A stretch of 62,616 nucleotides of DNA, filler included, from Aduncisulcus paluster (lineage: Eukaryota): NCBI GenBank assembly GCA_024181965.1. It is 7 parts of 7 records of this genome, joined end to end, with 100 filler letters (N's around TTAATTAATTAA, not from the genome) between each part and the next. Parts side by side here need not be neighbours in the genome. Positions count along the whole stretch, not along the records: positions 40,575 to 46,630 come from BQXS01010905.1; 6 more parts are not named here. One strand, 5' to 3'. The position numbers and the translations under genes are program-made. Within the stretch, counting starts at the first letter, position 1; every line of letters begins with the position of its first letter. This document shows, in pieces, positions 9,469 through 61,714 of this stretch. The notes under the pieces are model-generated. The model saw nothing but the letters and a program-made list of their open reading frames with translations. It made no database searches and had not been told where the DNA came from.

Positions 9469-9568
9469 NNNNNNNNNNNNNNNNNNNNNNNNNNNNNNNN
9501 NNNNNNNNNNNNTTAATTAATTAANNNNNNNNNNNNNNNNNNNNNNNNNNNNNNNNNNNNNNNNNNNN
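9469..9568. other. Artificial contig linker (N44-TTAATTAATTAA-N44); also at 24186-24285, 34180-34279, 40475-40574, 46631-46730 and 56706-56805
   Basis: The identical 100-nt spacer with six-frame stops occurs six times, and genes are truncated at it. Confidence 0.98.
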
Positions 9569-32433: not shown

Positions 32434-34179
32434 ATGTATGAAAACAGTTTTTCTGTTACTTTATATGTATTGAATAGTAGCAAAAATGGGTGGATTGAGG
32501 CCGAACAAATCGCATCTTCTTTACCACCGTCTCATCGTCCCAAACAGACGCTTCATTTTTTTTGTAATGCTTCCAACCAACCATTATTATCAACAATAGA
32601 CATGATATGTGGAAATTCGATAGTTTTTACGGCGGGTCCAAGTTTTTCCTTTAATTTTATGAATTCAACAGCCATTGCGATTATAGACAGGCATGGAAGT
32701 TATGTCTGTGATTTCGAAGATAAATCTGAGGCCCAAAGTGCATATAAATTTCTAATAGCCTTCAATAAGAGTTTTGTAAGGTCTCCCCCTCCCCCACCAC
32801 CTGCTGATCATAAACGCATGCAAGATGATAGTTATCTTGGCATTGAATCCACTTTAGAGGGTCAATACGAACCTCATACAACAAAGATATCCCCTGAGAC
32901 TCCGGTTGCTCTGACTCCTGATGATGTGAGTTCAGTTGAAAGAGAACCATATCAATCTCCTGAAGAATACATTATGCATGAAAAACATGATGAATTGATT
33001 GATCCCGTTGAACAAAAACGTCTTGCAAAGATCGCTCAAGCAGAAGAGAAGAAACGGAAGAAAGAAGAAGAAAAAAGGAAGAAAGAAGAAGAAAAAAGGA
33101 AGAAAGAAGAGGCAAAACGCCATGCTGCTGAGAACAAACGTCGTAGAGCTCGTGGACTCCCAACTCTATCGGGAAGAAGAAGAAGAAGCTCAATATGCTG
33201 AACAAGACCATGGCAACAATACAACCGGTATTGACACTGAATCTAAGATATCTGATGCCCATTCTGAACCCTTTTCTGGTCCCATGTATGTTGATTATCA
33301 AGATGAATCGAGTCAAGAGCATGAACCAGCATATACCCCTCTCACAGCCGCTGCTCTAAAACGAATTAATAGTGGGGAGATCCAAGCAATGTCGTTGGAT
33401 GCCAGACCAGATCCTGATTCAATGCTTCCTCCTCCTCTTTCTCCCTCACATCGAATGTCACAGCTCTCTCATCATTCAACCGCTGTCCATGACCAATCGT
33501 CACAAGCACCGATTGGTGGGTCAAACAATATGGATATGTCTTCTCGCCCTTCTCAACTGGCACATGAATACGAATCCACTGATCCACCTCATCTGGTCTC
33601 CAATCCTTTGTTTACACATGTTCTTGACCTCGAAAAGGAGAGACAGTGGCTTGGAGAGTCAGGAAAAGAGGGTGGAAAAGGAAGAGAGAGACAATGGGAA
33701 ACATCAAGACTTAAACAGCGGCTCAATCGTAGTGAAAGGCAACGTGATAATCAAGAGTATACTGAAGAACATGCTCCAAAAACTGTATCATCAACGGCAG
33801 AGGTTGATAGGAAAAGTGCTGACATGCAACATACCACAGACTCAACTGATAATGGTCAACATACTTCAAGTAGGATGGGTATAAGCACAACGAGCACCAC
33901 AGGTACAACGGACGGAACAACAACGGATGGAACGAGTGAGGTTGATAGTATGTACACTTTCAGGCGTCGTATAGGTCATTACGACCCTCTCTCTGACGAA
34001 TGGGGCAGTGTGGTTGGTGTCACTGGCAGTGCCATTGATGGAGAGAGAGAAACCATGGGAATTGATGGCACACGTGATATTCCTGTTGATCTCACACATG
34101 AAGGAATGGAAAGGCAAGAACAACAGGAAGAGAAATGTGTCGATGGTACAGTTGTTGCCCAAGATTCAAATATTGTGGA
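32434..34179 (+). CDS. EVH1/PH-like domain protein with polyproline, a K/E coil and a disordered tail; one frameshift at ~33170; 3'-partial
   Basis: The N-terminal VTLYVLNSSKNGW...YVCDFEDKSEAQSAYKFL pattern resembles the WH1/RanBD/PH fold and is followed by PPPPPP. Removing one G in tcggg joins GLPTLS to EEEEAQY of ORF 32999. Confidence 0.55.
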
Positions 34180-34279
34180 NNNNNNNNNNNNNNNNNNNNN
34201 NNNNNNNNNNNNNNNNNNNNNNNTTAATTAATTAANNNNNNNNNNNNNNNNNNNNNNNNNNNNNNNNNNNNNNNNNNNN

Positions 34280-36200
34280 CACTCATACGCTCATCTTCAT
34301 CGAGTTGGGTGAGTCCTGTGAAAACTTCATTCAAACATGCATGAACAGGTTGGAATTTACCTCCTTCAATGGTTAATAAAGATCGAAACAAGGGAGATCG
34401 GAGAAGAGATGGAGACATTATTTTCCATCAGATCAATAAGAGTTTTCATGATTCTAACAACTTCTCTGAATAATGGCAATGAAACAAAGGGATGTTCACA
34501 TATGAATAAAGCGAGAATCGACATTCCAAGAGAATATCCATCACTCTTCTGAGTTTGAGTTCCAGCAAAAAGTGTTTCATAGGAATTGTACACAAGAGTT
34601 ACACATTTGGAGGCTTTTTGTTTCGAGGTTTCCTTTTTTTCTTTCTTTTCAAACTCAATGGGTTGAATCAAACCTGATTTGGTAGTTGATGAAGATGATA
34701 TAGAATCTAAGATCTGTGCCAATCCAAGATCAGAGAGAACAACAGTACATTTCTTTGAATCAGGATCAAAACGAACAAGGAAGTTGTCAGGTTTAATATC
34801 TCGATGGATAAGTCTCCTATTTGCTGTAAACACATCATCAAGACACTCAATCATCCCAACACAGAGAGCACTCACTCTCAGAGGATTCAGTGTCATGGGA
34901 TCAATATGAGTTGTGTCATGTTCACTCTTGGAAGAAGAAGAAGAATATTCGGATTCAGAATATTCCTCATCATTTTCACTCTCATCTCTAACATCCTTTG
35001 CTTTTAAATACTTGCCATCAGCACACCAACTCCTTGCAAAGTCCCTAACACTACCTCCAGCACAATATTCCATGATAAATCCATATATACCTTTCATATC
35101 TGCATCAAGAAGATCAAGAATATACAAAGGACGTGGGATACGATTGAAATATTCTGGGCAGTTAAACAACCTTTGTTGCATCTTGAACTCCTTTCGACAT
35201 CCGTTGACAACCCATTCATCAGCTTCACGGAGCATTTTCTTCAGAACACAAGGAATAGGAATACCTTCAACCTTGACAAGAATAACTTCACCAATCCACC
35301 ATGACCAATGATGCACTGAGGAGTGATGGTTGCAGAGGAAGTGAGAGTGAAGGAGTCATGTTTGATAAGTTTGGAAGAATCGGATGGGAGAGGAGGAATA
35401 CCATCACTTGTGATGAAAATAAGGGATTTGATTTGAAAAGATCGACGGTTTTTCTCTCTCCGCCTTCCTTTTCCTTGAATCTCACATAAAACAACATTTA
35501 GCAAATCAATAGGAAGGAAGTGACATTCATAGCCATGTTTAGGTTTTGTAAATTCATACTTTTTGGAAATCTTCTTACCATCAGAAAGAGTAAAAGTGAA
35601 GAGAAGAGAGGGTGAACTACCATCTTAATCCACACAAATATAAGCACCTATAATTGGGCTTGGTGCTGGAAAAGGAATGGAAATATGGGATAAGCTGACA
35701 GCCCCTTCTCCTTTTAACATTCTTTGTGCTTCGAAACTCTTATATTGACTTAATTCCTTCCTATTTGAATCATCTTTTGCCTTTACCAATTCAAATGAAG
35801 GATTAATTATTGCTGAATTATCACGGGGAATAGGAATAAAATCATCTTTCCAGTATTCATGAATTCTGGCTTAGAAATTGGCTGAAATTTGATACAAAAA
35901 TCATTGAAATATAATAAAGCAAATAAAAAAAAACACAAGAATCATAAGATTTGTGAATAAATTAAAGGTTTCCCTTCAATATTTATAAACAAACAAATAA
36001 GTAAAAACATACAGTTTCTGCCCAGCAACGTTCATGCACTTCACGAGCAGTACGTTCCTCGGAGGTTTCTTCTCGGATAAAAACAAGAGATTCTATGTTA
36101 AATACTCGACTATTTTTCTTTTCCCACGTTCCTTCCCTCGAATCCCACACTATTCGACATCAGCCAAATCAATAGGAAGAAAGAACCATTCATGAGTGAA
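34280..36200 (-). pseudogene. Domain-plus-kinase family pseudogene with one intron (35882-36012)
   Basis: HRDIKPDN and DLG kinase motifs; a 1-nt deletion in the Gly loop (~35293); a frameshift at ~34420; an in-frame TAA at 35625-35627; upstream domain remnants (HEWFFLPIDLADV; MLKGEGAVSLSHISIP). Confidence 0.85.
35882..36012 (-). other. Spliceosomal intron, 131 nt, GTATGT...CAG, phase 0
   Basis: Removal joins CWAET|PISKPEF, matching the paralog LWSEAPVVKPEF. Confidence 0.85.
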
Positions 36201-40574: not shown

Positions 40575-41209
40575 ATAATAGCAATATCAATAGACGAGGC
40601 TCCTCCCTCAACAACTCCTTCCAACGCACCAATAATAAGTTTAATCGCAGAATCACCCTCGGGAGGCGTCTCAATGTCATATTCTTTCTCTAGATATTCC
40701 GTCACAGGCTTGTCACTACGACCAAGGGCGGCGGCATAACAGCCGGTCCAGGTACCGGCGGGATTGGTTCGGAACAGGCGTGGCTCCTCTCCATGGGGGT
40801 CAAAACCTGCAATAAGACAAGAAACTCCGAAGGGCCGAACTCCACCACTTTGGGTGAATTTCTGTTGTAAATCGGCAACATAACGGGTAACATGGATAAC
40901 GGTTGGTGCATCTTCATAGTTCCTACGATGTGTTTGGCATTCTAAACGGGCTTTAACAACAATAACTCTTGAATCGGCTGTCCATCCTGCGGAAGCCAAT
41001 GCAATCCCATCGTCGAGAGAATAAATCTTTTTCATTGTACGGGGATCCTGTAGTTTAGCAGCTGCTTTCCTTTCAACTCCAATAACAACGGAATCTTTCC
41101 CTTTTAAAGCAACACATGTATTACCCTTACTAACAGCTTGTAGGGCATATTCAACTTGAAACAATCTCCCATCGGGAGAGAATACAGTTAGAGCTCGGTC
41201 GTATGACAT
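40575..41209 (-). CDS. PSMA7: 20S proteasome subunit alpha4 (3'-partial)
   Basis: MSYDRALTVFSPDGRLFQVEYA signature, VERKAAAKLQDPRT and QQKFTQSGGVRPFGVS. The true start is the ATG at 41209. Confidence 0.92.
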
Positions 41210-41310
41210 TTTCCAAGGAAGAAATGATCCCTTTTCATAATAGCAATATAATAACACTAACATAGTAATATCAATAGACGAGGCTCCTTCTAAATGTATA
41301 TTCAAACAGC

Positions 41311-44300
41311 TTACTTCTTTCCTTGAGTTACTTTCTGAAACTTACTGGGTCTTCTTTTGGGACTTTTCTGCTTCTTAGGTGACATAACCTTGTTCATCCA
41401 ACTATTCACAGAATATGACAAAATATCTCGACTATCGCTGACAGTGCTGTGTGATACGGAGCTGTGGCTGAGTGATGGAGCTTTCCTTGAATATCCTGAG
41501 GAGAATCGTGTTGGCCTAGATCTCTCTTTGAGGGGTTTCTGAATTGTGGGTTTGGTTTTACGACTAAATCCATCACTATTAAGGCAAAACGATCGAAGGT
41601 CTCGTTCATCGCTTTCTGTACTTTGTTTAGTAGAGGTTTGGCTGGATATTTCTTTGCTTAGTGGTATCTTTGGAATTATTCGCCGGTGAGATCCATCTCC
41701 TTCAATTGAAAATGAGTAATCACCTCGGTGATCACCAACAGTACTCTGTTTGGTAGAGGTTTGACTTGATGAAGATATCATGGAGCTGTTTATCTTTGGA
41801 ATTACTTTCCTACGAGATCCATCTCCTTCAACTACAAATGAATAAACATCTCGGTGATCACCAACAGTGCTTTGTTTTGTTGATGAATCTTGACTAAGTG
41901 GAACTGGACCATTAGAGATTGAGGACTCTGAATAACTTCTTCTTTCATCATCGCTTCCACTCCTTCCCTCCTCTTCTTCCTCTTTCTCTTCTCCTTCCTC
42001 TTTCTCTTCTTTCTCTGCTCCTTCATCTGGATAACGATTTTCAACTCGGTCAATACGAACAGGATAATAAGTGTTTGGAAATGCACTTCGCTGTGCATTG
42101 TTCATATTCAGCAGAGGTTTTGGAGTACCATGCAAACTTAAATAGCTCTCAATACAATCCTCGATACTGGGACATTTCCAAGCATCACCAATCTCAGGCA
42201 GGAGATATTTGATATGTTGTAATTCCTCACGTGCTTGATGAAAACTCATCCGTTTGCCACGATCATGCTGGGTTAAACCTGTGAATACTTCATTAAAGAC
42301 ATTGAAAATAGGTTTATAACGACCGCCATCGAGGGTTAATAGCGATTGGAAGAGGGGAGAAGAATGAGATAGGTTCTGACAATGGTTATCTTCCATCATT
42401 TGAATTATCATGTTCATGGTTTCATTTTTTTTGAGCATTCCTCTGCGAACTTGTCTTGCAACTTCTCTATATCCGGGAATTGTTACAAAAGGAGCATTAC
42501 CTAAAAATAATGCAAGAACTGACATTCCAAGAGAATATCCATCGGTCTTTTGGTTTTGAATGCCATGTCGAAGAGTTTCATAAGAATTATATACGAGGGT
42601 TCCACTCCGAGAAGGTCTTTGTTTTGATGTTTTCCTTTTCTTTTTTGCTTGGGATGATTTAGAAGAGTCAAAATCAACAAAACCTTTGGAAGATGTTGAA
42701 GATAATATTGAATCCATAATCTGAACTAATCCGAGATCAGAGAGAACAACAGTGCATTTCTTTGAATCAGGATCAACACGAACAAGGAAGTTGTCAGGTT
42801 TAATATCTCGATGGACAAGACTTGGATTTGCTAAAAATACATCATCAAGACATTCAATCATTCCAACACAAAGAGCAGCAACTTTCACAGGATTCAATGT
42901 CATGGTATCAATATATGGAGAATCATAAACATCGGCATACTTTCCATCAGAACACCACCTCACAGAAAAGTCTTTCACACTGCCTCCAATACAATATTCC
43001 ATCAAAAATCCATAAACACCTCTGAATTTTGCATCAAGGAGGTTAACAATATACAAGGGACGTGGGATACGATTAAGACATTTGGGATCATTGAACAACT
43101 TTCTTTGTACCTTAAACTCCCTTTGACAATCTTTCATAACCTTTTCATCCGTTTTACGAAGCATCTTCTTCAGAACACAAGGAATGGGAATACCTTCAAC
43201 CTTGACAAGAAGAACTTCACCAAAGCCACCATGACCAATGATACATTGAAGGGTAATCGCCGAAGCGGAAGTAAGAGTTAATTTGTCATATTTTGATTGT
43301 TTTGGAACCTTTGAGGAATCTGAAGGAAGGGCAGGAATATCACTGCCTTGGATAAAAACAAGAGAACCAAGATAAAAACGACGACTATTCTTCTCTCCCC
43401 ATCTTCCTTTTCCATTTATCTCACACAAAACAACATCAGGCAAATCAATAGTCAGGAAGAACCATTCATACCAATGTTGAGATCTTGTAAATTCATACCT
43501 TCTGGACGATTGCATTCCATTTGAATGAGTGAAAGAGAAAAGGAGAGAAGGAGAGCTAAAATAATTGTGAACACAGATATAAACTCCTTTCATAGGACTT
43601 GGTGATGAAAAGGGGATGGAAAGATGGGATAAGTATACCCCACATTTCCCTTTTAACATTTCTTGCACAGAGTGTTGAAGATCATCACATTTAGATTGGG
43701 GACTCAAGAGATCATCCTTGCCCAAAACTCTATCAAATGTAGGACTTATAATTGCTGGATCATCGTTTGATATCGGGATAGCTTCAATAAAGCCTCCAAC
43801 AATAAACTTTGGATATATTAATTCAGCTTCACGCCACTGAGTACTAAGAGTAGATTCTTTGAATTGACGATCAATCGATTCTTTGGGACTTTCTCCTCTA
43901 AAGAAAAGAAGTGAATAAATTATAAAATAATCCCTAATTCCCTTTCCTTCAATCTCACACAAAACAAGATCAGTGAGATCAATTGGAAGAGAAAACCAAC
44001 CAATACCATCAATCTTTGAAAAATTATACCTTTTGGATGTTTTTTGCTTTCTTGAAGATGTAAAAGTGAAAGTGAGATGAGATGGAGGTGCATTAGAGAA
44101 CATGTCACAACCAACACATATATAAACTCCCTTTATGGGGACAGATGGAGAGAAAGGGAGGGAAATATGGGTCAAATATCCATTATAATACTCTCCTTGA
44201 AATATTTTCTGTATATTCAAGCTTTGGTCATATTTTGGATCGTTTTCATTAAGAGTTGCATTCATTGCCTTGATATTTGATATGATGGGGCACAGACTTG

Positions 44301-45708
44301 ATGGATCATCTCTTGAAATTGGAATACATTCAAAATTTCCTTCAGAAATAAAAGTAGGAATTATTTCACGAAAAGCATCCTTCTCGATTACACTTGGCAC
44401 ATCCTTGATTGGGCCAGCGATTAAAGGTGGAGGTACATCGAATTTTAGAATCTGATTTCGAATAATTTCATCCAAAGTGGGACATTTCCAATCTGAACCA
44501 ATCTTTGGCAATAAAAATTTGATACCTCGAACCATTTCGCTTGCTTCATGAACGCTCATACGATCATCCACAGTAAATCGAGTTAAACCCTCAAACACTT
44601 TGTGTAGACATTGATAAACCGGTTGATACTTTCCATCTTCAATAAACTTTATGCTTCTCCACTATTTGAATCTCTAAAGAAATGTCGATAAATTCGATTT
44701 TTCCAGAAACTTCATTAATGTACGTCTAAATTCAGCAGGATCAACAATACCACTGAAATGAGGATGATTCAAGAAAGGGACGCGACCAAGAAACAAAGCA
44801 AGAATAGAGATTCCAAGAGAATATGCATCACTTTTTTGACTTTGAATACCTTCACGAAGGGATTCATAGGAATTGAATCCAATGGTACCAATAATGGAAG
44901 TAGGAGACATTTGAGCATTTGGATTTCCTTTCTCTCTTCCCATGGCCGTTTCGGATGAGAATGAATCAAAAGAGTCTGACTGTGAAGCGTTAATCATATC
45001 TTGGATGCTTAACAATCCAAGATGAGCCAAAACAACAGTACATTCTCCATCTTCAGAAGCAACACGAACAAGGAAGTTGTCAGGTTTTATATCTCGATGG
45101 ACAAGGCCTTTCTTTGCCTTGAACACAGCATCGAGGCATTCAATCATTTCAACACACAAGGCACTCACTTTCACAGGGTTTAATGTCATGGGATCATCTT
45201 CCGAAGAAGAAGAGTATTCGCTATCATAGCTGGATTCAGAGTCATCTCCACGATCTAAATCGTCACCAATTCGCTTTCTACACCAACTCTTGGAAAAATC
45301 TGAAATATTTCCACCAGCACAGAATTCCATTATAATTCCATACATGCCTTTGAATTCGTCATCAAGAAGATCAAGAATATACAAGGGACGCGGGATACGA
45401 TTGAAACATTTGGGATTATTGAATAACTTGAGTTGCATTTGAAACTCCTTTTGACAATATTTGACAACTCTTCTATTACCAACCTCAAATAACTTCTTCA
45501 AAACACATGGCATGGGAATACTTTCAATCTCAATATCAACGAGGATAACTTCCCTACTTATAAAACATTTTTGTTTAATGGCTGCAGAGGACGATAAGGT
45601 TGGCAACTCATATTTAATGGGATCATGTGGTTTTCTTTGTTGAGTTGATGATACAGAATCCATCGGTTTGGGATTCAAGTCCCATGAAAAGTCTGAAACT
45701 ATACTCAT
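41311..45708 (-). CDS. Tandem kinase: kinase 1, two novel domains, kinase 2, repeat tail; interrupted by a 33-bp inversion at 44647-44679
   Basis: ORFs 44674-45708 and 41311-44598 are in the same frame, and both kinases have HRDIKPDN. The linker reads FIEDGKYQPVYQCLHKVFEGLTRF, the family kinase C-lobe. Kinase 1 lacks the Gly loop and has HLG for DLG. Confidence 0.85.
41420..41890 (-). repeat. About 40-aa tandem repeats (STKQSTVGDHR..YSF..EGDGS.R..IPKI, 3-4 copies) in the kinase tail
   Basis: Seen in the translation of ORF 41311-44598. Confidence 0.8.
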
Positions 45709-45791
45709 ATTTAGAGTTTAGTTAAAAGACCTATTTTTGAATAAATATTGTTTTTATAAAGAATTTTATGCAATTAGCGAAAATTCAACAA

Positions 45792-45808
45792 TTTCAAGGG
45801 AGGAAATG
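45792..45808 (-). promoter_or_regulatory. Candidate upstream element shared by kinase paralogs (also 61812-61827)
   Basis: tttcaagggaggaaatg versus tttcaaggaggaaatg, each ~85-100 nt upstream of the paralog ATG. Confidence 0.45.
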
Positions 45809-46189
45809 TGACAGTATACATAAAACACGTAATAGGTAAATAAAATGGAACAATAATGCATAAAATAGAATTGATTGCACATTGATTGTGCTGGGGCGAC
45901 ATACGATATATACTATGAAGGTCTGTAAAGTACCAAGAATGGGAGATCCGTCAAGTGCGGTCATTTGGTCATCGTTTTCGAAAAAGACGAAAATAAAATT
46001 CCATAAAATGGTCAGGTAAATACAATGATTAATATTATTCTAACGATTAATTCTTTCATGAATGAACAAGAAAAATTGATTATTAACTTTCACTTTTTCT
46101 TCCTTTCTTTTGATCACCGTTTGGATTGATATCAACTTTATGAATCTTTAGTAATTTATTGGCGCTCGGAAATGTTATACCCTGAGAAG

Positions 46190-46630
46190 TCACGTAACTC
46201 TAGCACCCGAAATAGTAGAAAAAAGTGGATTCATCGACATGCTGGATTTGCTTATGGTTTCTGCCAGCGGAGCCGATAACCATTGTTTTGAAAGTGCCTT
46301 GTTGATAGCACTTGGTGAAATCAACGTTGAAGAAATGGAATCAGCTGACAGTCGAACTAAGACCACAGAATTATACAATCCAGGATTCTCTCGTTGTGTA
46401 TTGTAAAGCCACGTACAAAGACTACATTCAACCTCAATTCGGATTCAGTGACGAGAAATTTATTTATGCAGCATGCCATGTGAAGAAAGCATACCTATCC
46501 GTCTTTGGAACACCTCTATCGAGCCCTGGAAACTACGAGTACAAGTTTTATCACATTAATCATTATAAACGATGCATCACGCTTCCATTTAGGGACAACC
46601 ATAAAACATTAAACGGTCAATTTCGGCGAT
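46190..46630 (+). pseudogene. Frameshifted OTU-like cysteine protease fragment
   Basis: A Cys-box-like SGADNHCFESALLIAL (Cys 46284-46286) in one frame, then GFSDEKFIYAACHVKKAYLSVF and a His-box-like FYHINHY in the next frame. Confidence 0.4.
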
Positions 46631-46888: not shown

Positions 46889-49800
46889 TCACAAATCTGG
46901 AGTCCATAAATACAGAGCAGCACTCCGTCTGTAATATTCCCTGACATCGCCTTCCACAGCTTGTTCTGTTGTAAGAACCAACAGTTTCCTGTCTTCATCC
47001 AGATATACAGGCAGAGACATGTTACTTCTCACATCTTTCTCTTCTTCTTCCTGCTTGGATTTTTCTCCCTTCATCCACCTAATAAAGACACCTCCTTCAA
47101 CATTTTGGATGATTGTATCGCCCACGGACAACACTCCATCCTTTACGCATGCTCCACAAAGAGCAGATCCAACAATACGAACCCATTCACCACCTTCCCG
47201 ATGATCATCTTTGGTTACATCACCGAAACACACCTCAAGAACAAGAGTTTCGAGAGCAGCAGTAAGCTTACGAGCAGCAGCTTGACGAAGAGCAGTAAGG
47301 AAGGCTCCAGGCTGAGACATCCCTCCCAACCAGCAAGAAATGAATGCGGTGTGATCATCTCCACCTTTCTCCATACTCTTGACTTCGGCATAAAGTTTAA
47401 TAAGCCTATCCTTTCTTCTCTTCAAGTCAGTCACGAACATAACAGGGGAACTATGAGCAAGTGGTAATGTTGTGTGAAGTGCATCTTTCCAACGATCAGG
47501 GATCATTCCTCCGTTCAATGAAGTCGTTAAGGATAAAAGTTCATTTGAAACCTGGGTTGTGTGCATAAGCAAATGAAGATCATCTTTAACAACGTGAACT
47601 GCTTCAAGAACATTCTCACACTCACTCAAAATAGAACGGAGAAGAGGAGCAAGTCGCACAGATGCTGAAGAACCAGATTGAGTCAAAGTCTCTCTTTGTC
47701 CATGGAGAAGTTTCTTGATTTCATCAGTGTGTGGCAACAAAGACATCCAGAAGCTGGCTGATGAGAGCAAAGAAGCAGAAACCACAAGACTCTCTCCTTC
47801 TTTCTCTTCTCCCTCATCTGTCTCGAGTTCCTCGAGTTCCATCTCATCTTCAACATTTGGAGAATTTCCACCACTTTCCTCAGTGCCTCCACATAGGAGA
47901 ACTCCAATTCCTTCCTGCACAATCCTTCCACTACGGCCAAGGACAAGACGGGTGGCTGAATGAGGCAGGTAGATCAGAGATGGGTCACTGTCTGTGAGGT
48001 TGGAAGCCCATTGGAGCTGAGCGGCAGGAGAGAATGATGAAGGAAGGGGAGGGAGTGTTGCAGATCCCTCAATAGCTCCGACAAGCTGGAATGACTCTTC
48101 AAAGGCTTCGACACAAAGGGAAGAGTCGACAAAAGTCTTCAGAATTCGAGCATCGGGGTCATTGTCAATCCTTCCACCAAGACACACTTCACACAGTAAA
48201 CTCCTGAGAGCAATCCAAGGAATATCATTGTTGATGTCAATACTCTTACGATCTCCACAAGAATCCCTAATCCATTTCTCAGCAGTTCGCAGTGCCGCTT
48301 CGAGATCACTATTGGAGAATTCAATATTCTTGCTCCAACCGAGAGGAGTGTAGGCACGTCTGGATACAACTACACTGTATACGAAGCAAATAAGAAACAA
48401 AATATGCCTGGCTTGGTGAGGCAATGTTTTGACATCACATACAGATTGGTAGGTTTTAATAGACCGTTGAAGCTGGGTCTTGACACCATTTGGAGCCTCG
48501 ACAGCGAATGAGAGAGACATTTCAAGCAGCAAGGAAGGTAAGGAAGGTGTTGATACGGATGTGATAAACAAACGGAATGTTGAATCACTCTTAATGCTAT
48601 CACACACGTTCTTACATACAGAAGCAAACGATTGAAGCCATACTTTGTCTGCAAGATGAAGATTCGTCACGAGAACCCACTGTCCTTTCTGCATACTCTT
48701 ATGTAAAACTCTGCGTACACTTTCAACACGCTGAGCTTCTTCGCTTCCAACACTGACATGAACTATCCCAGGACGAGTCTTCTGTTTGTTGTAGGCACTC
48801 GTAACAGAGGCAGAGGCATCGAAACCAGGCTCAGATAAAAGAAGAATGGGTCTGTTCCCACCAGCGAATGATGATAGAGTTGTCACAGATGTGTTGTCGG
48901 GAAGACTCATGAAAGAAGATCCAAGAGTGGATTGAAGGGTGAAACGCACAGCACCTGACAACAAATCAGGTCTCACAATACTTATAATCACACAAATAAC
49001 CAACAAATGCTGCATGAACTCAACAGATGTATTGTTTAATTGACTCAATCTAACTCTAGAAGCACGAGAATGTTGCTCAGGGACTTCAGACTCCTCTTGT
49101 TCATCAACGTCTTCCGTCTTAGCAGCATTCTTGAAGGCCAAGAAAGCATCATCGATATCCAATCCTTCAATTCCCACCTTAGAGCACGTGAAAGATTCAA
49201 TTACTCCCTTTACATCAGCGCTAACACCCATAATCTTCATGAACACATCACTGTTCTCACACAAAAGGGATACATATGATGAAAGGACAGGTGTGGACGA
49301 AAGAGCTCCAAGCAGTTCATGAGAATGAGGAGGAAGAGATACCATAGGTTCAGTAATATCTTCTCCAATGAATATATCACTCTCTTTATCGATGGGAAGC
49401 ACTGCACGAGCTCCCGCACCGTGTAAAGGTCCATGGGATATCAATCCACACATTGAATGCAATTTCTCTTGCCACTCCATGGAATCTCCACCTCTTTCCC
49501 TCTCGCTCTCACAAACATACAAGATAGCCAATGAAAGAGCCAGTGCAAGACGATGTTTCTGCGGTAATCCCACACCTGCATATGACCATACCTTCTCACA
49601 CAAACGTTGACAAAGACGACGCATCCGGTTGATAACCTTGATATCACTCAATTCGATTTCAGTGGATTTGATAGTACCCCGATCACTCAAGGAACCTTCA
49701 GCCTGTTTCTGAGAGAGTATCTTCTCTCCATCCACCCCCACTGTAAACAACTCAGACTCGAAGATCTGGATAAAGCTCAAGACATCCCACTTCTGAGTAG

Positions 49801-52800
49801 CATCGAGTCGACTGAGATTTAGCAGAAGGAAATACAAATTGGCAGAGAACTGAGCAGTTGGAGTATAAATACAAGAACACTCATCAAGGGACTTACGAAG
49901 CTCTATGGCCTTCTTCTCCTGCTCAGTGACTTCAATGGCTTCGTTCTTGATCTTTTGCAGTGCAGAGATAACCTTATCATCTTCGAGAAGATTTCCTTCA
50001 GAGTTGACAAGGAGTTGCAACAACCCTTCTTCAAGTTCATCAAGTTTTGCTTGTAACTGACGCTCTTCTTGCATGACTTCCTGTCTCTTAGATCCAACGT
50101 CTGGACGTTCATACTTGAGGATTCTTGATAGAGTCTGTCCTTGGAGTGATGAAGGCGTGATTGAGAAGTTGATCATCGTTACACGAGACACCAGATCTGG
50201 AGGAAGCATCGAAGAGGAGTTGGAGGTCGACAATATCAGTCGAAAAGAGGGAGATAAGTCGATAGTCTTGGAACCTATGCTAACGACCATGCCTCCTCCT
50301 CCTCCTCCTCCTTTTCTTCCCTCACGATTCAACACAGGATTCAGGATTGGATCTAATCGTTCACAGTTCTTCACAAGGAGAGGAAGACCGAATCTCAGGG
50401 CCTGTTCGAGGTTACGTTGGAAGTTATTCTCAGTGCACGATGTCACAATGATTCTCTTCTCTTTGTAATAACTCAACAACCAATCCACAGCATTGTCTGT
50501 GGGGTCAATAATGAGAGGATATCTGGGTTCGTAACAGTCAAATATAGACCCATTTGTGATAGAAAGAGGGTCGTCACCAAGTCCATGATCAACCATCTCT
50601 CTTCTCTTATCTGGACTCAAGAGGAATTCATGGACAACAAGGTCATCAGAGAAGGCAATGTTATAGTTATCCAACTTACCTTGCCATCTCAACATCAGAC
50701 TTCTCCTTCCTTTCTCATCATACATTCCTCCATAGCTAACAAGACAAGAGCTGAGAACACAATCTCCAAGCAGAGCTGTGGCCTGATCTTCAAGAGAAAT
50801 ACTTTGGCCATCCCAACGGTCTTTCTCACCGCCAAGAGAGGACAATAAGGCTTCAGAACGCTTCACCTTAGCCTCAACCATTTCCATTTCAACTCGAAGA
50901 CGTTCACTTTCCTTCAATTGAGTCGTGTATTGATGCTTCAATCGAGAGACTTCATCTTCAATTTGCTGTAAATTCTGAGCGACTTCATTGGCTTCTTTTT
51001 CAGCGGCCATAGCCTTCTCTCGTAGCCCTTTCACTTCAAGACGAAGAGGCTCAACCTGTTTCTTGATTCTGGCATACTCGATCTGACTCTGAACCCACTT
51101 AACCATAGGACCGGCACATCTAGATGCACGATTGACAGCCTCAAAACTGAACTCGGGGGAGGATAGATAGTCTTTCTGAATGATTCTCAACACCTTTGGA
51201 GATGGGAGAGCTTTGCAATGGACAATCTTACTCAGGAATGAATCGCTACGCATCACACGACGAATGTTGCTCCAGTCACATGCAGAAGGAGAAACGGCTC
51301 CAATAAACATACATGTGGCTTCAAGGGCCATCCTGACACCATTCGGAGGACGAGCAAGAGCTCTCAGCTCATCAAGTTGTGATTTCTTGATGGAGGACAG
51401 AGATTTCTTAGCCTCTTCAACTGCGGGTTCAACCTTTGCGAGTTGTTCTTGGGCTCCAGATTCTCTTTCAGCAATCCTAGTTTGTTGTTCCTTAACATCC
51501 TTTTGCAGACGTTCGGCTTCCCTTCTCCTCACTTCAGCTGTTTCTTGGCGTGAGACAACTTCCTTTAGCATCTTATCAGCACGCTGGGCTTGTTCATCGA
51601 GTTGTCTTCTCTTTGCAGCCAACTCCACTTGCATCTCAGACACTTTGCTACTGGTCATGTCAAGTCTCTTAAGACCACGTTTAACAGTGTGCAACTTCTT
51701 TGCTCTCTCCTCTTGGCGTTGTTTCATAAGACGTTGAAGTAAGTCCAATGTATGCAAGAAATGGCGAGGAGACACGTGACGACAGGCATCCAAAACACCT
51801 CCAGCTTTGCTAACAACTTTACCTTCAACCTTGGTTACATTGTGGATATCAGCCAACGCTTCACAGAGAGTTTGTCTCTTGTTATCAGCGTCAGAAGAGG
51901 ATCCAAGCCTGGATGGAGAAGTGAGAGAAGAGGCAGAGAGAGAGGTTGAGGCAGCCAAGTCTTGAATACCCATAGCTGCAGTAACGTCCAATCCTCCCAA
52001 ACGTTTGACACTGACTTGAACAAGAGCATCCCTTCCCCAATCTCCAAACCAATCAACAACACAACGATTGAACAACGCGGGAGAAGTCGATGCACGTTTT
52101 CTCATGGCTTCTGCACTCTCTTCAGGGGTGCTACCGGCAGGATTCATAGTCATGACAACATGTAAGTTCCTAGAAACTCGAGAGATGAAGAATTTATACA
52201 AGGCATCAGTGTCATCTCGTTCTGGGAGGTTGATAGATATGCGTGCCTGCTTTGCTTTGATGGTTTGAACACAATGTTGCATCTGTTTTATAAGATCATT
52301 CCAATGTTCAGGGGCATCGAACAAACCAGGAATCTCACCACTTGCGAGCAAAGCATTCATATGTTCTAGGAAAGAAGTCTTGAGTGCATTACTCTCATCG
52401 AAAATGAACACAATCTTCTCACCCTTTACACCACTTCTCAGCATGACACTTCTCAAGTCCTCCTCGAAGTCATCCAACGTGTATCCACTGTGTACCTTGC
52501 ATTGGAATGTACTGTATCCATTAATCCAGGCAATAAACCTTGATAGAATAGTTTTTCCAGCTCCAGGAGATCCCACAAGAAGGAGATGTCCTAAAGGTTG
52601 TCTCAGCACACGATCAATGCGGGTGGCATGTTCAAGAGCTTCATCAAAGAACACAAGAGGAACATCGACATCCTCTTCTCGGAAAGACCTCAGACGTCTT
52701 GTAAGGAATTGTCTGAGTGAGTCTCTATCACTCAATGAATAGTGACCATCCAACCAAGGAGTATACAAGGGAGAGAGAGAACTGAAGTGATCATCCAAAA

Positions 52801-55800
52801 TATCTTCAATATTACAGACATCTCCAAAGGAAGACACAACGGTATTGTTAAGGAGATCAAAGGTCCATTCACGTTCGTTCGTTCCGACAAGACGATCGAA
52901 GAACAACCTGAGACCTTCATGGTAGAATAACAAAGCAAGATTCAGAATTGGGTTGGAAGAAAGTGAAGATCCCAGTTCAGAATTTCCACCTCCTCCGGCA
53001 CCAACATCACCCAGGCCATCCTCATCATCGTCCAATCTCTCCTTGAGTCCCTCACTCATGGCTCTGACCCAACGAGTGAGTTCCCTGGGAGAATAGACGT
53101 AATGGGGTTGCAGGGCGGGTGTGAGTTTCCTTCTGCTCTTCTCATAGACCTCAACCATTCCCCATGTAAGGCTATTCACACTCTCACTGAGGTCAGGTCT
53201 TCCACGGAGTACGGCGTCATTGAAGGATGAGTAGATCGTCATCAAACTCTCTCGACCAGGGAAATCGACAAGAACAACAGGACAATGACGGAGGAAACGA
53301 GGACAGAGGGGAGTACGACCGGGATCAGAGGGTGGATTACAAGCTCCAACGAACACTACCTTTCTCACGTCCACCCAAGCACTGTGCTCAACACTCCAGA
53401 ATCCACTATGCTCAGTGAGTTGACGAACAAGAGAAATGACACATTGAGTTCCAAATGCATCTGGTTCAGGCAGGTTGATCTCATCACACAGAACAACAAG
53501 AGCATGAACACTCTTGTTCTTTGGCGTGGCAATGAAACCTCTTGGTGTGTGTTTGATGTCACAATATCTCTTGATAGTATCATAAATGATGGCAGGGGAT
53601 GTCGAAGATGAGAAGTTGAGGGCAACGAAATCATATTTCTTCCTTCCATCAATGCCTTCGCCTTCAAGAACCATAGCATTAGATTCTTCGACAGTTTCAG
53701 ATCCATTTTCTCCACCAACATTTCCAATAACACTGTGCAGACTCATAGATTTTCCAGAACCTGGAGGTCCACAAAGGATGAACGGTGTATAAGACAGGAG
53801 CCAGGCTGAGATAAGTTGCTCGTGTCTCGCAGTATCAACGGTTGGGATAACGACATGTCCGACATCTTGTTCATTCACACGGACATGTGGGATATCCATC
53901 TCCCAAAGTTGCCATTGGGGCGGAAGAGAAGATAAGAGGTTGCCAGAGGATGAGGATGAAGAATTGGTTTGAGATGGAAGGGGTACAACATAGTGGATAA
54001 GAGCATCACCTTCGTGGAAATCAAGCTCAGACAGAACACGAAGGTGTGAGCTTGAAGGCCTCGTTGTGGCAATATCGCCTCTATCTTCACTCTCTTCATC
54101 GTCTTCAGAACGACTCAGAACGAGCCCACTCCTTCTGGCTTCCTTCCCAAGATCATCTTCCTTTTTCTCCCAAGGTGGAGGGAGAAGAGAAGAGGTCCAG
54201 GGGAATGAAGAACATTGTTCCCAAATAACTCGGGAAACAAACAAACGTCCGTCAAGGTCAAGGGAGGAAGACAAAGACCAAACGAGTGAGAAAATGCAGT
54301 GAGAAACAAAGAATGATGATAACTGTGCCATGTAAGCAGCCGTGAGAGATCTTCCTGTATCTCCATGGGAGGATTGTTCGAGCTTGAAGGCATATTCAGA
54401 TATCGATTGAATTGAAGCATTAATCAGAGAGAACAATGTACCAATTAAACGAGCTCCATCTCTCTCCATCACATCAACATGGGTGTTTGGAGGCAACGTT
54501 GAGAGGATTTCGAGGATCCGAGGCACCAAAGCTCTCTTAGAAAAGTCATCAACAGTGGCTCCAGTGGCGCTTGATTGTCTCTGTTCTTCACTTTCGGCCA
54601 AGGGAATGCCAATGCCTCCCACAGCTTTGTTTGAGAATAAAGGCAACAAAGCCTTATGAGCAATGCTATTGACTTCATTTTTGATTATTTGGAATCGAGA
54701 TAACTTCTGTTCGACAGCTTCTTTCTTCTTTTTGTTCTCAGTTTCATCGACATCTCTTCCCATCCTCCTCTTATCGATAGGTTCAATCAGGGAACTCTGA
54801 CCGGCAGTCTCAACAGATTTCATGAATCCTTCACAAAGAACGTCCATTCCAACGGTATCTTCACTGCACCAAACGGTTCCACAACGAGACACAGTAGCCG
54901 GGGTGGCATGTTCGAGTTCACGAACCTCAAAAGCTAATGTTACGTTGGGTGGTAACAGGATACGTTCACCTGATGGCAAAACAAGTAATTTGTTATCATC
55001 CAGACAAGCATTCAACTGTTCAATCCACTCTGGATCACAGTCACAGTCAAATACAATCCAATACAAGGGTTCATTGGGGATTTCAAAGTTCAATTCATTG
55101 GGAATTCTCCCCCCGTTCTTCTTCTTAATGTCAACCAACTCTCTGTTCTTATCCTTTCGCTTCTCATTCTCTTCACAAACTTTCCTCAAAATACTTGTCA
55201 AGATTCCATCTTTCCATTCACGCGTGTTATTATCCAACACACCGTAAACTCCACTCTTACCAAGACTCTTTGCGTCTATAACATAACTTATACAGTGACG
55301 CTTAAGCATTCTCGCCTGAGCTTCGAGCAACACACGCCAGCATGTACTCTTTCCACATCCAGCACCTCCAACAATGAGGATTCCGTGATGCAATGAAGAG
55401 GTTCTGCTCAATTGAAGCACTTTAGACACGAAGGATACAGAGGGAATGAGGGAGAATTGGTCACACACATCAATAATGTGTCTCTTTAAGGCCCAATCTT
55501 CACAGGAAGAGAGATTTGACTCAGGGAACACATCAGTGAGAAGAGGAGTGATCAGTTTGAGGTCAGAAGCAACCAATTTGGGAACAACAGTGTCAATGAT
55601 AGATTTAACAAGGATATCGAGTTCTTCAGTCGGGGTGAGAATTACACCGCCATCAGCTGAGGAGTTAACAGATCCTTCCTTCTTCTCCTTCATTACCGAC
55701 CGCAATAAGAACCCGGCACTTCCCAACACTGCCTTCAAGGCTCGAAGTCCGAAATCGTAATGGCTCTGACGACTGAGTTGTTCTTTGCAGAGTTTGAAAA

Positions 55801-56705
55801 GAGGAACAACTTTTGTACTCAGAAGCTCGGCAGTTCTGAATCCCTGAGAGAAGAGAGTGACCTGAGCAATGAGTTCTCTATCTGGAACAATCATACTAAT
55901 CGGTCTGAACAAAGCCTTCAAGTTATCAGGCAATTCACGACGGCCTTTATATCCAGGGTTCATAGTGATGAATATACCGACGCCTTCCTTGAGTTTTGTC
56001 TTTGTTCCACTGATCAGAACATCCTCTTTCCCTTCTTCTAGAGCTTCTTGAATCTGAGCAATGACACAACTCACACCAGACAGAACAATCTCATCCAAAC
56101 GATTGAATTCATCATAACATCCAAAGGCTCCACAAGCACAGAGCCCACTCAGAGTTCGAGACACAGCGTTGGCGTCGAAATTCTCATCACAACAAACAAC
56201 CTGACAGAGTCTTCCGAGGTGTTGGGCAAGCATCTTCACAGATTCAGTCTTACCTGTTCCAGCCGGTCCAGCCGGTGATCCTCCTTTTCTTTGAGCCAGT
56301 GCTTGAGTCAAAATAAGGAAACATTTATCAGTCAGTGGGGTTTGAACCAATCTATCAGCAGAACCCCACCATTCATAACCATAAGTGAATTCTGTATCAG
56401 CCACTCTCACAGCCACAATTGGATAGTCATGGACAGTGGCGTTGGTGACTTCAATGTGATCGAACAACGATTGTGACCCGGGAACTTTCTTCCATTCCTT
56501 GACCTCGAATTCTTTTTCATTATAATTCACACATTTGGAAGGCTCAATAAGATAGTGACGCATTTGTGCCTGCCACATAAATGGGATTTGAACTTTCTCA
56601 ATATCTTCAGATGATTTTTGTGATTGTTTTGAGGAGAGTTCAGTTTCTTTCATGGACACAGACAAACGATCAGTCAAATCACGGAGACGAATGAGCTCAG
56701 TCAAT
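46889..56705 (-). CDS. DYNC1H1: Cytoplasmic dynein 1 heavy chain, motor domain (5'-partial)
   Basis: P-loops GPAGTGKT, GGAGCGKS, GPPGSGKS, GSPGAGKT and a stalk coiled coil. Dynein-1-type motifs RLVQTPLTD, LRQPLGHLLLVG and TSPALFNRCVVDWFGDW. Confidence 0.95.
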
Positions 56706-57326: not shown

Positions 57327-60300
57327 TCAAATGTATGTATCAGTTTTCTCCTTCAAGATCCATCGTATCTTCATAAATTGTGGAACTTGAGCAATATAAA
57401 GGAAGAATATGAAGGAAAATAATGATTTCCTGAACTCTTCATACTTCTTTCTTCTTTGATCCTTTCTTTCCTTGCTTGACAATTCTTTTTTCTTTTCTTC
57501 CTGTTTCACCTTTCTAGCTCCCATATCACAGATGCTTGATGAACTTGAAGATTGTGACAGAATCGATCGAATTTCATCTCCTTTCTTCATCCCCAATTCT
57601 GAGGAAATTGGTGAAATAAATGGAAAAATGTGAGTATCATGAGCCTTATCATGGTCTTTGTCATGGTCTAACGATTGAACTTGTGTAACATGAATTGAAC
57701 TCATAGAACTAAGAGGTGAAGCACTGAATGAGGAAGAAGCAGGAGGGAAAAGATGTTTTCCAGAACCATCCACAAACGCATCTTGATCTTTCTTATCAAT
57801 TGAAGTCCGTTTAGAAGGAAAAGAATGAGCGAATGAGTCTTTTTTAACGATTTGAGTTTGATACATTCTTCCTTCTTCCACCTTTGGGTTTATACTATTT
57901 CCACTAAGAGTTGAACTTGAAGGAAATGATGCGATTCCATCCTGCTCTCTTCCATCATCATTATATGAAGAAATGGTACGATTTTCATTCTCCTTGTTTT
58001 GTTGTTCAAATGGAAACAAATCTTGATCATCAATCTTTTCTTTCTCACTTTCATCTTCCTCTCCATATGAGGTTTTCTCATCATATTGACCACCTTTTTT
58101 TTCTTTCTCAAGCCCATCTTTCCTATTTAAAAATCCAGAACCAATTTTTCGATACTGCGCTTTCTTACGTTTACCTTCCTCTCCAATGCATCCAGGATTA
58201 CCTCCATATTTTGCAAGCTGAGTCTTCACAATATCATCAATGGATGGACATTCAAAACCTTCTCCAATCTCTGGCAATAAATCTTTGACAGTTTTAACCT
58301 TTTCACGAGCTTCATGAACACTCATGCGTTCATCTTCATCAAATTTGGTGAGACCTGTGAATACTTCATTCAAACATGCATGAACAGATCGAAATTCACC
58401 CTTTTCAATTGACAATAAGGATTTGAAGAGAGGAGATTCTTTTAATGTTGGACCCATATCACCTTTGAGAATTCGACATAGTTCTAGAACAAAGTCCGAT
58501 CGATTGTAAATTCCTCTTAAACCAGGCATATTTGTGAAAGGGTGATCTCCCATGAACAGAGCAAGAATAGACATTCCAAGAGAGTAAGCATCACTCTTTT
58601 GAGACTGATACCCTCGAAGAGCTTCATATGAGTTGTACACAAGTGTTCCACAGATGGAACGTTGAGGTTCAGGTTTTCCCCCCTTTTCAGCAATCTTTGA
58701 GGAGTGAGAAGACACTTTTGTTACCCCACTTGAAGTTAGTCGTGATGAAAGAGAATCTAAGATCTGGACCATTCCAAGATCAGAGAGAACAACAGTGCAT
58801 TCTCCATCTTTGGGATCAACACGAACAAGGAAGTTATCAGGTTTAATATCTCGATGCACAAGTTTTGGTTTAGCAGTGAACACATCATCGAGGCACTCAA
58901 TCATTCCAACACATAAGGCACTCACTTTCAAAGGGTTCAATGACATTAGATCAAAATCTTTGTGATCATCACTATCTTCTTCTGAAGATGAGCATTCTTC
59001 TTCTTCTTCTTCTTTTCCATCTCCTTGAAGTTGACTTTCAGACTTATCAACAACACACCATTTCTTGGCAAATGAACTCACACTGCCTCCGATACAAAAC
59101 TCCATAAGGAATCCATAAACTCCCTTTAAATCTGCATCAAGAAGATCAAGAATATACAAAGGACGTGATATACGATTGAAACATTTGGGGTTGTTAAATA
59201 ACTTGAGTTGCACCTTAAACTCCTTGCGACATGTCTTGACAACTTTTTCATCAGCTTCATGGAGCATCTTCTTCAGAACACAGGGAATGGAAATACCTTC
59301 AACCTTGACAAGAAGAACTTCACCAAATCCACCATGACCAATGATGCACTGAGGAGTGATGGTTGCCGAGGAAGTGAGAGTGAAAGAATCGCGTCTCAGG
59401 GGAACACCTTCACCTATGAAAATAAGGGAATCTATTCTAAAAATCCGACTATCATGTCTCCACATTACATTTCCTTGAATCTCAACACTCAATACAGCCT
59501 TGGGCAAATCAATAGAAAGGAAATGCCATTCAGGATGAACGAAATGGGGTGATAAACTAGTTTGGTTTATGAATTCATATTTTTTGGATATCTTCTTATC
59601 ATCAGAAAGAGTGAAAGTGAAGAGAAGAGCAGGAGCTCGATACTCATCAAAACGAATATATACATCTTTAATTAAACTTGGGGAGAAAGGGATGGAAAGC
59701 CAAGATAATTTCACACCATGAGCTTCCCCTTTTAACATTTTTTGTACTTTTAAATTCTGATCATACTTCTCAGATTCCTTACAATATACATCATTTTTTC
59801 CCTGAACATCTGAAAATAAAGGATTTATGATTGAAGGATCAAGTCGAGAGGGAATATCACCCCATTTCTTAATTTTAGATTGAATGGGTGAAGATTTCAA
59901 CCATCGTTCTTCCAACAATATTTTTCTCTTTTCTCGATCAATCTCTTCGTCAGGAGTTTCTTCTCGATAAAAAGCAAGGGAATGAATAGGAAAATTATCT
60001 CCTATCCTTCCGTCCTTTACCCTTTTACCTTCGATCTCACACAAAATAACATCGGGGAGATCAATTGAAAGGTCATACCAAGATGTATTAGTCACATCAC
60101 TAAACTCATCAAATTTAAATAAATAAAATGTTTTTTTGTTTCCATTTAAAGAAGTGAAAGTAAATAAAAGAGAAGATACAATCTCTTTATCAATTAAACA
60201 AATATAAGCTCTTTTGATAGACGCAGAAGATTTGAAGGGAATTGAAATATGAGAAAAGTCTACATAATTACACTCTCCTTTCATCATATTTTGAACTTGA

Positions 60301-61714
60301 TTACTCACATCATATTCAGAATCATCTTGTAATTTGCTTTTTGCTTTAATTGCAGAAAAATCTGGACTGATAAATGTTGGATCATCTCGAGGGATTGGAA
60401 TACATGAAAAGTGACCAGAGTATTTGAGTTCAACCTTTCCCAATACAATACGTTGTTGAAGGAAAACTAATGAATCAATAATAAAACAGCGACTATTCTT
60501 CTCTCCCCATGTTCCTTTCCCTTCAATCTCACACAATTCAATATTATTCAAATCAATAGGAAGGAAGTGTCATTCAAATATATGTTTCAATCCTGGTTCT
60601 GTCTTGGGTTTTGGGAATTCATATTTCTTGTATATTTTCTTACCATCAGAATCGGTGAAAGTGAAGAGAAGAGAGGGTGAACTGGAATAATTATTAACAC
60701 AGATATAAGCACCTTTCATTGGACTAGGTGAAGGGAAAGGAATGGAAAGCTGGGATAATGTCACAACGCTTTCCCCCTTTAACATTTCTTGTGCTTCTGA
60801 ACACTTATCATAAAACTCGGATTCCTTACAATACGAATTATTCTTGCACTGAACCAATGAGAAAGAAGGATTTATAAGTTTGGGATGATCGCGAGGAATG
60901 GGAATAGAATCTCTACCTTGAAATTTTGTGCCCCCTTCCTTTAAAAACTCTGGTTTCACAACTGGAGCTTCAGACCATAGTTTCTCTCTGGCTTCACGAG
61001 ATGTGATTTCTTCAGAGGTTTCTTCTCTACTAATGAAAACAAGGGAGCGGATTCCAAAATACTCTTCTTCTCTTCCTTTCCCTGTAATCTCACAAAGGAC
61101 AACATCAGAGAGATCAATAGGGAGATAATACCAATGATAACCTTCGAATTCAGGAAATTCATATTTTTCAACCATTTTCTCCCCATTTGAAGATGTAAAA
61201 GAGAAGATAAGGTGTGATGTAAGTTGCCAGCTAAAAAGAGAATATCCTTTTATGCAGATATAAGCACCTTTAAAGGGAGTAGATGTGGAGAAAGAAAGGG
61301 AGATATCTGTAAATTCTCCCTGATTATTCTCTCCTTTCATCATCTTTTGTGCATGAAAACTCATATCATGGTCTTCATCACCTTCTTCCTTGGGCCAATA
61401 TGACCAAGTATTCTTGGCTTCAATAGCAGTTATATCAGGACTCTTAACATTTGGGGAATCTCGAGGAATTGGAGAGCAAAGGTAATTTCCTTCATGAATA
61501 AACTTTGGTTTAACTTCTTGAATCTAACAAATTAATTGAGTTTTTGGTGGAAATAAAGCAATAAAAAATACCCGAAAGAGAAAAGGAGTTATGAAAGCAA
61601 TATGGGCATTATTTTTCAAATTAATTATGTCAAACATCATAAAATGTATAAATTCGAAAACTTTCAGAAACATACAATATCTTGGCCACTTTCTGAGCTT
61701 GGTTTCGGATCCAT
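57327..61714 (-). CDS. Four novel domains plus Ser/Thr-type kinase; exon 1 61676-61714, intron 61524-61675, one in-frame TGA at 60570-60572
   Basis: MDPKPSSESGQDI|IQEVKPKFIHEG... is continuous with ORF 60570-61364, then FE*HFLPIDL leads in frame into ORF 57327-60551. Kinase motifs GHGGFGEV, CVLKK, KEF, HRDIKPDN, DLG, GTLVYNSYE. Confidence 0.85.
61524..61675 (-). other. Spliceosomal intron, 152 nt, GTATGT...TAG, phase 0
   Basis: Supplies an ATG exon to an open frame that otherwise begins mid-domain after ttgttag. Confidence 0.85.

Follow-up and report, generated by a model that had tools for sequence, protein, structure and literature searches.

A 33-bp microinversion breaks a pseudokinase–kinase gene of Aduncisulcus paluster

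A 33-bp stretch of the Aduncisulcus paluster genome is inverted in place within the coding sequence of a kinase gene. The stretch is confirmed as a genuine inversion and puts two stop codons into a reading frame that is otherwise open. We consider it very probable that this was a young, one-off microinversion, guided by an inverted repeat and belonging to the known 17–33-nt class, that turned one copy of the architecture pseudokinase–X–X–kinase (X being an unnamed domain) into a pseudogene. The event seems to be a recent and unexceptional error of copying or repair in a single family member, not an on/off switch. Its features are listed in Table 1, with positions counted along the window, the whole stretch of 62,616 nucleotides, filler included, that was analysed.

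Table 1. Features of the inversion and of the gene that it breaks, in window positions
Feature	Position	Strand	Evidence or remark
Microinversion, widest equivalent extent, 33 bp (arms and core)	44647–44679		Profile scan, sister comparison
Inverted-repeat arm CTTTA, 5 bp, perfect	44647–44651	+	Sequence
Inverted core, 23 bp, smallest extent explaining the data	44652–44674		An extent of 21 bp or less leaves a stop
Inverted-repeat arm TAAAG, 5 bp, perfect	44675–44679	+	Sequence
Premature stop 1, TAG, codon 345	44674–44676	-	
Premature stop 2, TAG, codon 349	44662–44664	-	
Whole broken gene, 1465 codons, pseudokinase–X–X–kinase–low-complexity tail	41311–45708	-	Contig G000:C10905 (window 40575–46630)
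ORF of 344 aa that remains on the upstream side, kinase 1 cut short before its C-lobe ends	44674–45708	-	
Kinase 1, degenerate	44461–45600	-	Glycine loop lost (about 45547–45567); DFG Asp replaced by His (45022–45024)
X domain 1	43885–44370	-	No Pfam match; as a lead, language-model features liken it to F5/8 type C
X domain 2	43339–43818	-	
Kinase 2, with GxGxxG loop, Lys, HRD and DLG intact	42154–43290	-	
Downstream open frame from Met384 (first in-frame ATG past the inversion), X–X–kinase–tail	41311–44559	-	Needs a separate start for translation

On the minus strand, which is the coding strand, the inverted stretch reads L*RFK*WRSIK (asterisks, stops); on the plus strand it reads LYASPLFESLK, a reverse-complement match to a motif of the family, in place and in register. 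The three paralogous motifs to which the original prediction likened it, LLRSPLFRSLL, LKESPLFKSLL and SHSSPLFQSLL, are indeed present, at 34397, 58436 and 42360. At the inversion site the sister paralogue on contig G000:C12721 reads NYLIDSPLFESLRVIEGG, and the broken gene, un-inverted, would read TFLYASPLFESLKFIEDG; compared by eye, the plus strand is identical to the sister at 18 of 20 nucleotides from the Ser codon. When 183 kinase copies were scanned with leave-one-out profiles, the reversed site took the top score of +30.6 bits (median 10.5), and a first profile scan gave the forward orientation -20.1 bits; these scores place the inversion beyond chance. Apart from its terminal stop, the minus-strand frame 45708–41311 is interrupted only by the two predicted stops, both inside the inverted stretch, and it is open over 1465 aa once that stretch is taken from the other strand, so the claim that a flip would fuse two ORFs into one stands. 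No indel accompanies the inversion, and frame and register are preserved on both sides.

The inverted repeat had been predicted too; it is perfect and exactly 5 bp, with no outward extension. Because of these arms, symmetric boundaries from 23 to 33 bp yield identical sequences and are indistinguishable. Among larger extents, 37 bp gives a stop, and 35 or 39–43 bp leave the frame open but would put the ends outside the repeat; a 39-bp inversion suits the Lys-Leu of the family but fits the sister gene less well. A terminal inverted repeat of at least 5 bp occurs in just 256 of 163,319 family 33-mers, which ties the repeat to the inversion event. Both arms end inward in TA (44650–44651 and 44675–44676), in DNA of 36% GC in which TA is common.

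The orientation of the stretch was read from the contigs of two runs of one sample, possibly the source of the assembly itself: X1, which is DNA-like, and X2, which we guess to be RNA-like because its depths are out of step with copy number in X1 (pieces near 1220–1320 in X1 have 30–97 in X2). A 548-nt contig (44323–44870) spans the inversion with 0 differences in both runs, and the broken (OFF) orientation is the only one seen (2 of 2 runs), in contigs that drop rare variants. The depth of this contig in X1 is 1300, against 1241.5, 1260.1 and 1272.8 for neighbouring exact pieces, and no other contig in the runs lies over the two bins at 44544–44727. Since both runs carry the broken orientation and the DNA-like run carries it at single-copy depth, the inversion is probably not an assembly error. 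The original prediction had proposed counting both orientations, reads that were all ON being the outcome that would count against it; the run contigs show the opposite, for the majority orientation to which contigs speak. Upstream of the gene, X2 contig depth rises to about 60,000 at 46200–46475, compared with about 100 over the gene, with only 3–6 copies in X1; this may be a repeated, possibly highly transcribed element. X2 is without cover at 45648–45923, where X1 is covered (one run only). At 45873–45909, an X1 contig of two-copy depth departs from the window at 13 clustered places, for which no inversion accounts.

The gene belongs to a family that combines a Ser/Thr kinase (PF00069) with repeats of the X domain. 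The X domain resembles F5/8 type C domains with a language-model score of 0.90, a lead only, obtained on the domain of a paralogue that is 91% identical to X domain 1. The family is very large, with at least 138 kinase-1 matches (125 of 412 candidates scored), and the source names every one of the 100 relatives of the downstream ORF and of the 35 relatives of the upstream ORF as an Aduncisulcus paluster protein. Copies that score well are over-represented in the survey, which scored 125 of 412 and 150 of 331 candidates. When 8 ORF variants of the broken gene were looked up as exact sequences, none matched (three began one codon off a Met), and the gene's own product is absent from both homologue-search listings. 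In a frameshift-aware alignment of 139 copies, 15 of the 122 near-full copies are broken, or 12 of 119 once one weakly aligned copy and two that lie at N gaps are left out, in a sample that favours intact copies and in which some breaks may be sequence errors. With about one kinase copy in ten broken, the loss of one member is unremarkable.

Several other loci have features worth recording. The family member with the LLRSPLFRSLL motif (34152–35396, contig G000:C10904) has two frameshifts in its kinase domain and carries the motif in the shifted frame. By eye, an ORF with X domains (60570–61364) stops in mid-domain and another (57327–60551) resumes the same domain in a different frame, so that 57327–61364 is probably one gene with a frameshift or a small intron. 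In-frame insertions of 190–310 nt lie within the kinase domains of three copies (L004:1159-2751, L111:2846-4360 and L132:1146-2624) and are possibly internal duplications. A proteasome subunit (40575–41305) adjoins the broken gene on the same contig; elsewhere there is a reverse transcriptase ORF (7641–8663) and, on another contig, a dynein heavy chain (46889–56704). The N runs at 9469, 24186, 34180, 40475, 46631 and 56706, paired runs of 44 N around a 12-base spacer, join separate contigs, and genes across them are thus not true neighbours.

The predicted layout of kinase, two domains and kinase holds, but the term tandem kinase does not, since kinase 1 lacks the marks of an active kinase, the GxGxxG loop and the DFG Asp. 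Its glycine loop is replaced and shortened; the VAIK Lys and the HRD Asp are retained. In 101 aligned copies, the DFG column shows Asp 99 times, is gapped in a single truncated copy and has His in kinase 1 of the broken gene alone (the 101 come from 139 copies after leaving out 15 frameshifted ones, those below 1000 or above 1400 nt and one poor alignment). Of 90 conserved columns, kinase 1 also deviates at 7, where the median is 1.5, and its tree branch measures 0.43, compared with a median of 0.15. Kinase 2 keeps the full motif set expected of an active kinase, GxGxxG loop, Lys, HRD Asp and DFG Asp, and the intact product would have been a pseudokinase–X–X–kinase.

The sister gene (P0001) is intact and has the same kinase–X–X–kinase layout, and its kinase 1 is the sister of the broken gene's kinase 1 in a tree of 102 copies (support 0.986). 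Synonymous divergence between the two genes falls from 1.0–1.4 in kinase 1 to 0.12–0.22 in X–X–kinase 2, with the drop located at 44370–44461 (about codon 440), although the kinase-1 domains are sisters in the tree; the pattern suggests gene conversion or partial duplication of the downstream half.

The same comparison bears on the order of events. A non-synonymous excess on the kinase-1 branch (105/44, against 62/42 on the sister's) is not significant (Fisher p 0.07–0.26, four outgroup sets), and kinase 2 has no such excess on its branch; the argument that kinase 1 died first therefore draws on the motif losses and the open frame. Of all single-base changes in the gene, 5.0% would create a stop, yet none is found outside the inversion in 1465 codons. 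Neutral divergence since the break should thus be less than about 0.014 if the whole gene has been free to drift, or 0.06 if only the upstream part has, compared with a dS of 0.12–0.22 to the sister in the downstream half. The gene has a disabling lesion, an intact paralogue and little further decay, as a young pseudogene should. In the simplest order, catalysis by kinase 1 would most likely have been lost first, at a time when the downstream domains still required its frame, and the inversion would have followed; with the looser bound of 0.06, some of the decay of kinase 1 could postdate the break.

The features of the site lend no support to a reversible element. At the homologous place, none of 81 paralogous 33-mers has a 5-bp terminal repeat (60, 10, 5, 4 and 2 copies have 0, 1, 2, 3 and 4 bp, respectively). 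The arms are ordinary Leu-Tyr and Leu-Lys codon pairs, and because Tyr stands there in at most 1 of 81 paralogues and Ser in 46, the fifth base of the repeat may be new. The hairpin at the inversion, at -1.5 and 0 kcal/mol, is no better than shuffles. Scanning 183 kinase and 213 X-domain copies (330 kb) with leave-one-out profiles, as the original prediction had proposed for the family, gave no convincing inversion besides this one, at a sensitivity of 55–70% (artificially introduced flips of 23 and 33 nt scored at least 20 bits in 42/60, 39/60, 31/56 and 38/56 trials), so that some family inversions would be missed. The best X-domain score was 19.5 bits. The runners-up were rejected: L079 (24.5 bits) has the normal SRCGTLVYN motif on its forward strand, where a natural quasi-palindrome adjoins a frameshift, and the others (22.1 bits or less) are acidic linkers of low complexity. 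The natural quasi-palindrome at the SRCGTL motif, at the end of the kinase activation segment, is found in L079, L148 and L054, and the frameshift of L079 lies just upstream of it. The assembly has 19 matches to tyrosine recombinases (PF00589) and 3 to resolvases (PF00239), none of them on the contig of the broken gene. The 23-bp core is below the size for recombinase synapsis by a criterion argued in the available text of a primate study, which holds recombinase inversion to be physically impossible below about 33 bp (PMC8755829). With a single orientation in the contigs of both runs, arms conserved in no paralogue, a core too small for synapsis and no second inversion in 396 domains, the idea of phase variation finds no support, and the gene is better said to be broken than switched off.

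A plain accident explains these observations. By chance, a Leu-Tyr and a Leu-Lys codon pair of the kinase C-lobe would have made up an inverted repeat of 5 bp with 23 bp between its arms. A polymerase may have switched to the opposite strand at one arm, replicated the core in reverse and switched back at the second; alternatively, a break within the core may have been mended through microhomology, with the same product. The antisense text contains the two TAG codons, and the frame is kept because the inversion preserves length. An mRNA from the normal start would then give a 344-aa fragment of a dead kinase, with the X–X–kinase half not reached. Such a loss may have been tolerated because kinase 1 was likely already dead, the sister is intact and there are over 100 relatives. 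The original prediction preferred template switching; the size, the arms and the in-register reversal agree with a repeat-guided inversion that knocked the gene out, and template switching and break repair give the same product. Against template switching in particular, the available text of PMC8755829 argues that very short arms suit it poorly, and spacer inversions in yeast coding genes are described, in the text available, only with arms over 9 bp and spacers of 2–5 bp (PMC8604942). Against the explanation as a whole stands the nature of the runs, which are not independent strains and, as contigs, are blind to rare alleles.

Readings that would spare the protein without any flip were rejected. 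On paper, 26 frame-keeping GT..AG pairs could splice out the stops, but the X2 contig is colinear over the site; the only joint across it, from 44535 to 44784, has ends that are not GT/AG and is present in X1 at single-copy depth, and it was read as a paralogue rather than an intron. Stop readthrough or another genetic code is at odds with 150 scored C-lobe matches, of which only the inverted one has a TAG and one other a TGA; the text between the two stops is, moreover, unlike the family. That the gene was split rather than lost, the inversion having severed a dead pseudokinase from an X–X–kinase half that lives on from Met384, Met392 or Met482, seems to us unlikely. Kinase 1 is degenerate and kinase 2 intact, X domains with one kinase are the layout of many relatives, and the downstream frame is open, contains in-frame ATGs, has a dN/dS of 0.34–0.39 relative to the sister and shows no excess along its branch. 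A recent knockout, however, predicts an equally intact downstream half, and the lack of decay there fits a recent break and a still-used half gene alike. Met384 is preceded, past the inversion, by three ATGs in other frames, and re-initiation after an ORF as long as 344 codons is poor in eukaryotes.

The remaining readings turn on the orientation that the contigs display. Short inversions at micro-repeats are a known type of chimera in amplified libraries, and both runs come from one sample; the same orientation nevertheless recurs with 0 differences in two separately filed runs, at full single-copy depth in the DNA-like one, and a 5-bp repeat cannot confuse an assembler that uses 31-letter words, so an artefact of library making, amplification or assembly has a nearly negligible probability. 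An intact allele beside the inverted one, in a heterozygous or mixed culture, could have been collapsed, given that contig builders remove bubbles and the run data are contigs. Among 23,235 assembly contigs, however, neither the 33-mer (with up to 3 mismatches allowed) nor its flank occurs a second time, and the spanning contig is not shallower than its surroundings (1300 versus 1241–1273), a weak point since an even split lowers depth by only about 5%; we regard such an allele as very unlikely. A recombinase-free toggle, in which replication slips flip the 23-bp core through the 5-bp repeat and a minority of cells make the full protein, is extremely unlikely. The repeat is perfect and survives a flip, a single flip restores the 1465 aa, contigs drop rare variants, and yeast spacer inversions have reversed over evolutionary time (PMC8604942, in the available text). 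Yet only OFF was seen in either run, the hairpin is negligible, the repeat is unconserved, the 396 domains hold no second convincing case, and a restored kinase 1 would remain catalytically defective; the available text of PMC8755829 further estimates the rate of such microinversions in primates at about 2e-13 per nucleotide per generation.

The preferred reading, a one-off microinversion that made a pseudogene, provides a clean example of a known but rare mutation type, caught within a coding domain of a free-living fornicate protist; among the papers listed by a literature search, none dealt with such microinversions in Fornicata. It also corrects the annotation: the two ORFs are one broken gene, the first kinase of which, going by its motifs, was probably already dead. 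Should the restored orientation be found in culture, the locus would represent recombinase-free phase variation in a eukaryote and would add stochastic variation to the large receptor-like kinase repertoire of a free-living fornicate; should the downstream half be expressed alone, it would be a case of gene fission by microinversion.

Pseudogenisation through birth and death is an established concept for large paralogous families, and this family conforms to it, with about one kinase copy in ten broken and an intact sister present; the lesion here is an inversion, whereas frameshifts or point stops account for the rest of the broken copies. In the available text on yeast coding genes, spacer inversions take place between arms over 9 bp with spacers of 2–5 bp, swap amino acids and have been reversed over evolutionary time (PMC8604942). 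As there, a spacer between perfect arms has been reversed within a gene, and a second event could in principle reverse it; unlike there, the arms are 5 bp, the spacer is 23 bp and the outcome is nonsense. Bacterial intragenic invertons, in the text available, are defined by both orientations in reads and ascribed to invertases, one of them being 57 bp (PMC10028968). They share with the Aduncisulcus case an intragenic flip between inverted repeats, a premature stop and one ORF split in two, and differ from it in that here one orientation is seen in the contigs, the 5-bp arms are unconserved, no recombinase match lies on the contig of the gene and the host is a eukaryote. As far as the available text of that study goes, every one of 59 human–chimpanzee microinversions of 17–33 nt has flanking inverted repeats, of 4–8 nt in half of the cases, and none lies in coding sequence (PMC8755829). 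The Aduncisulcus inversion resembles that set in its size, its clean in-place reversal, its short edge repeats and, as far as its own contig goes, the lack of any recombinase sign, and it departs from it in lying within a coding domain, in bringing two stops into the frame and in occurring in a fornicate protist.
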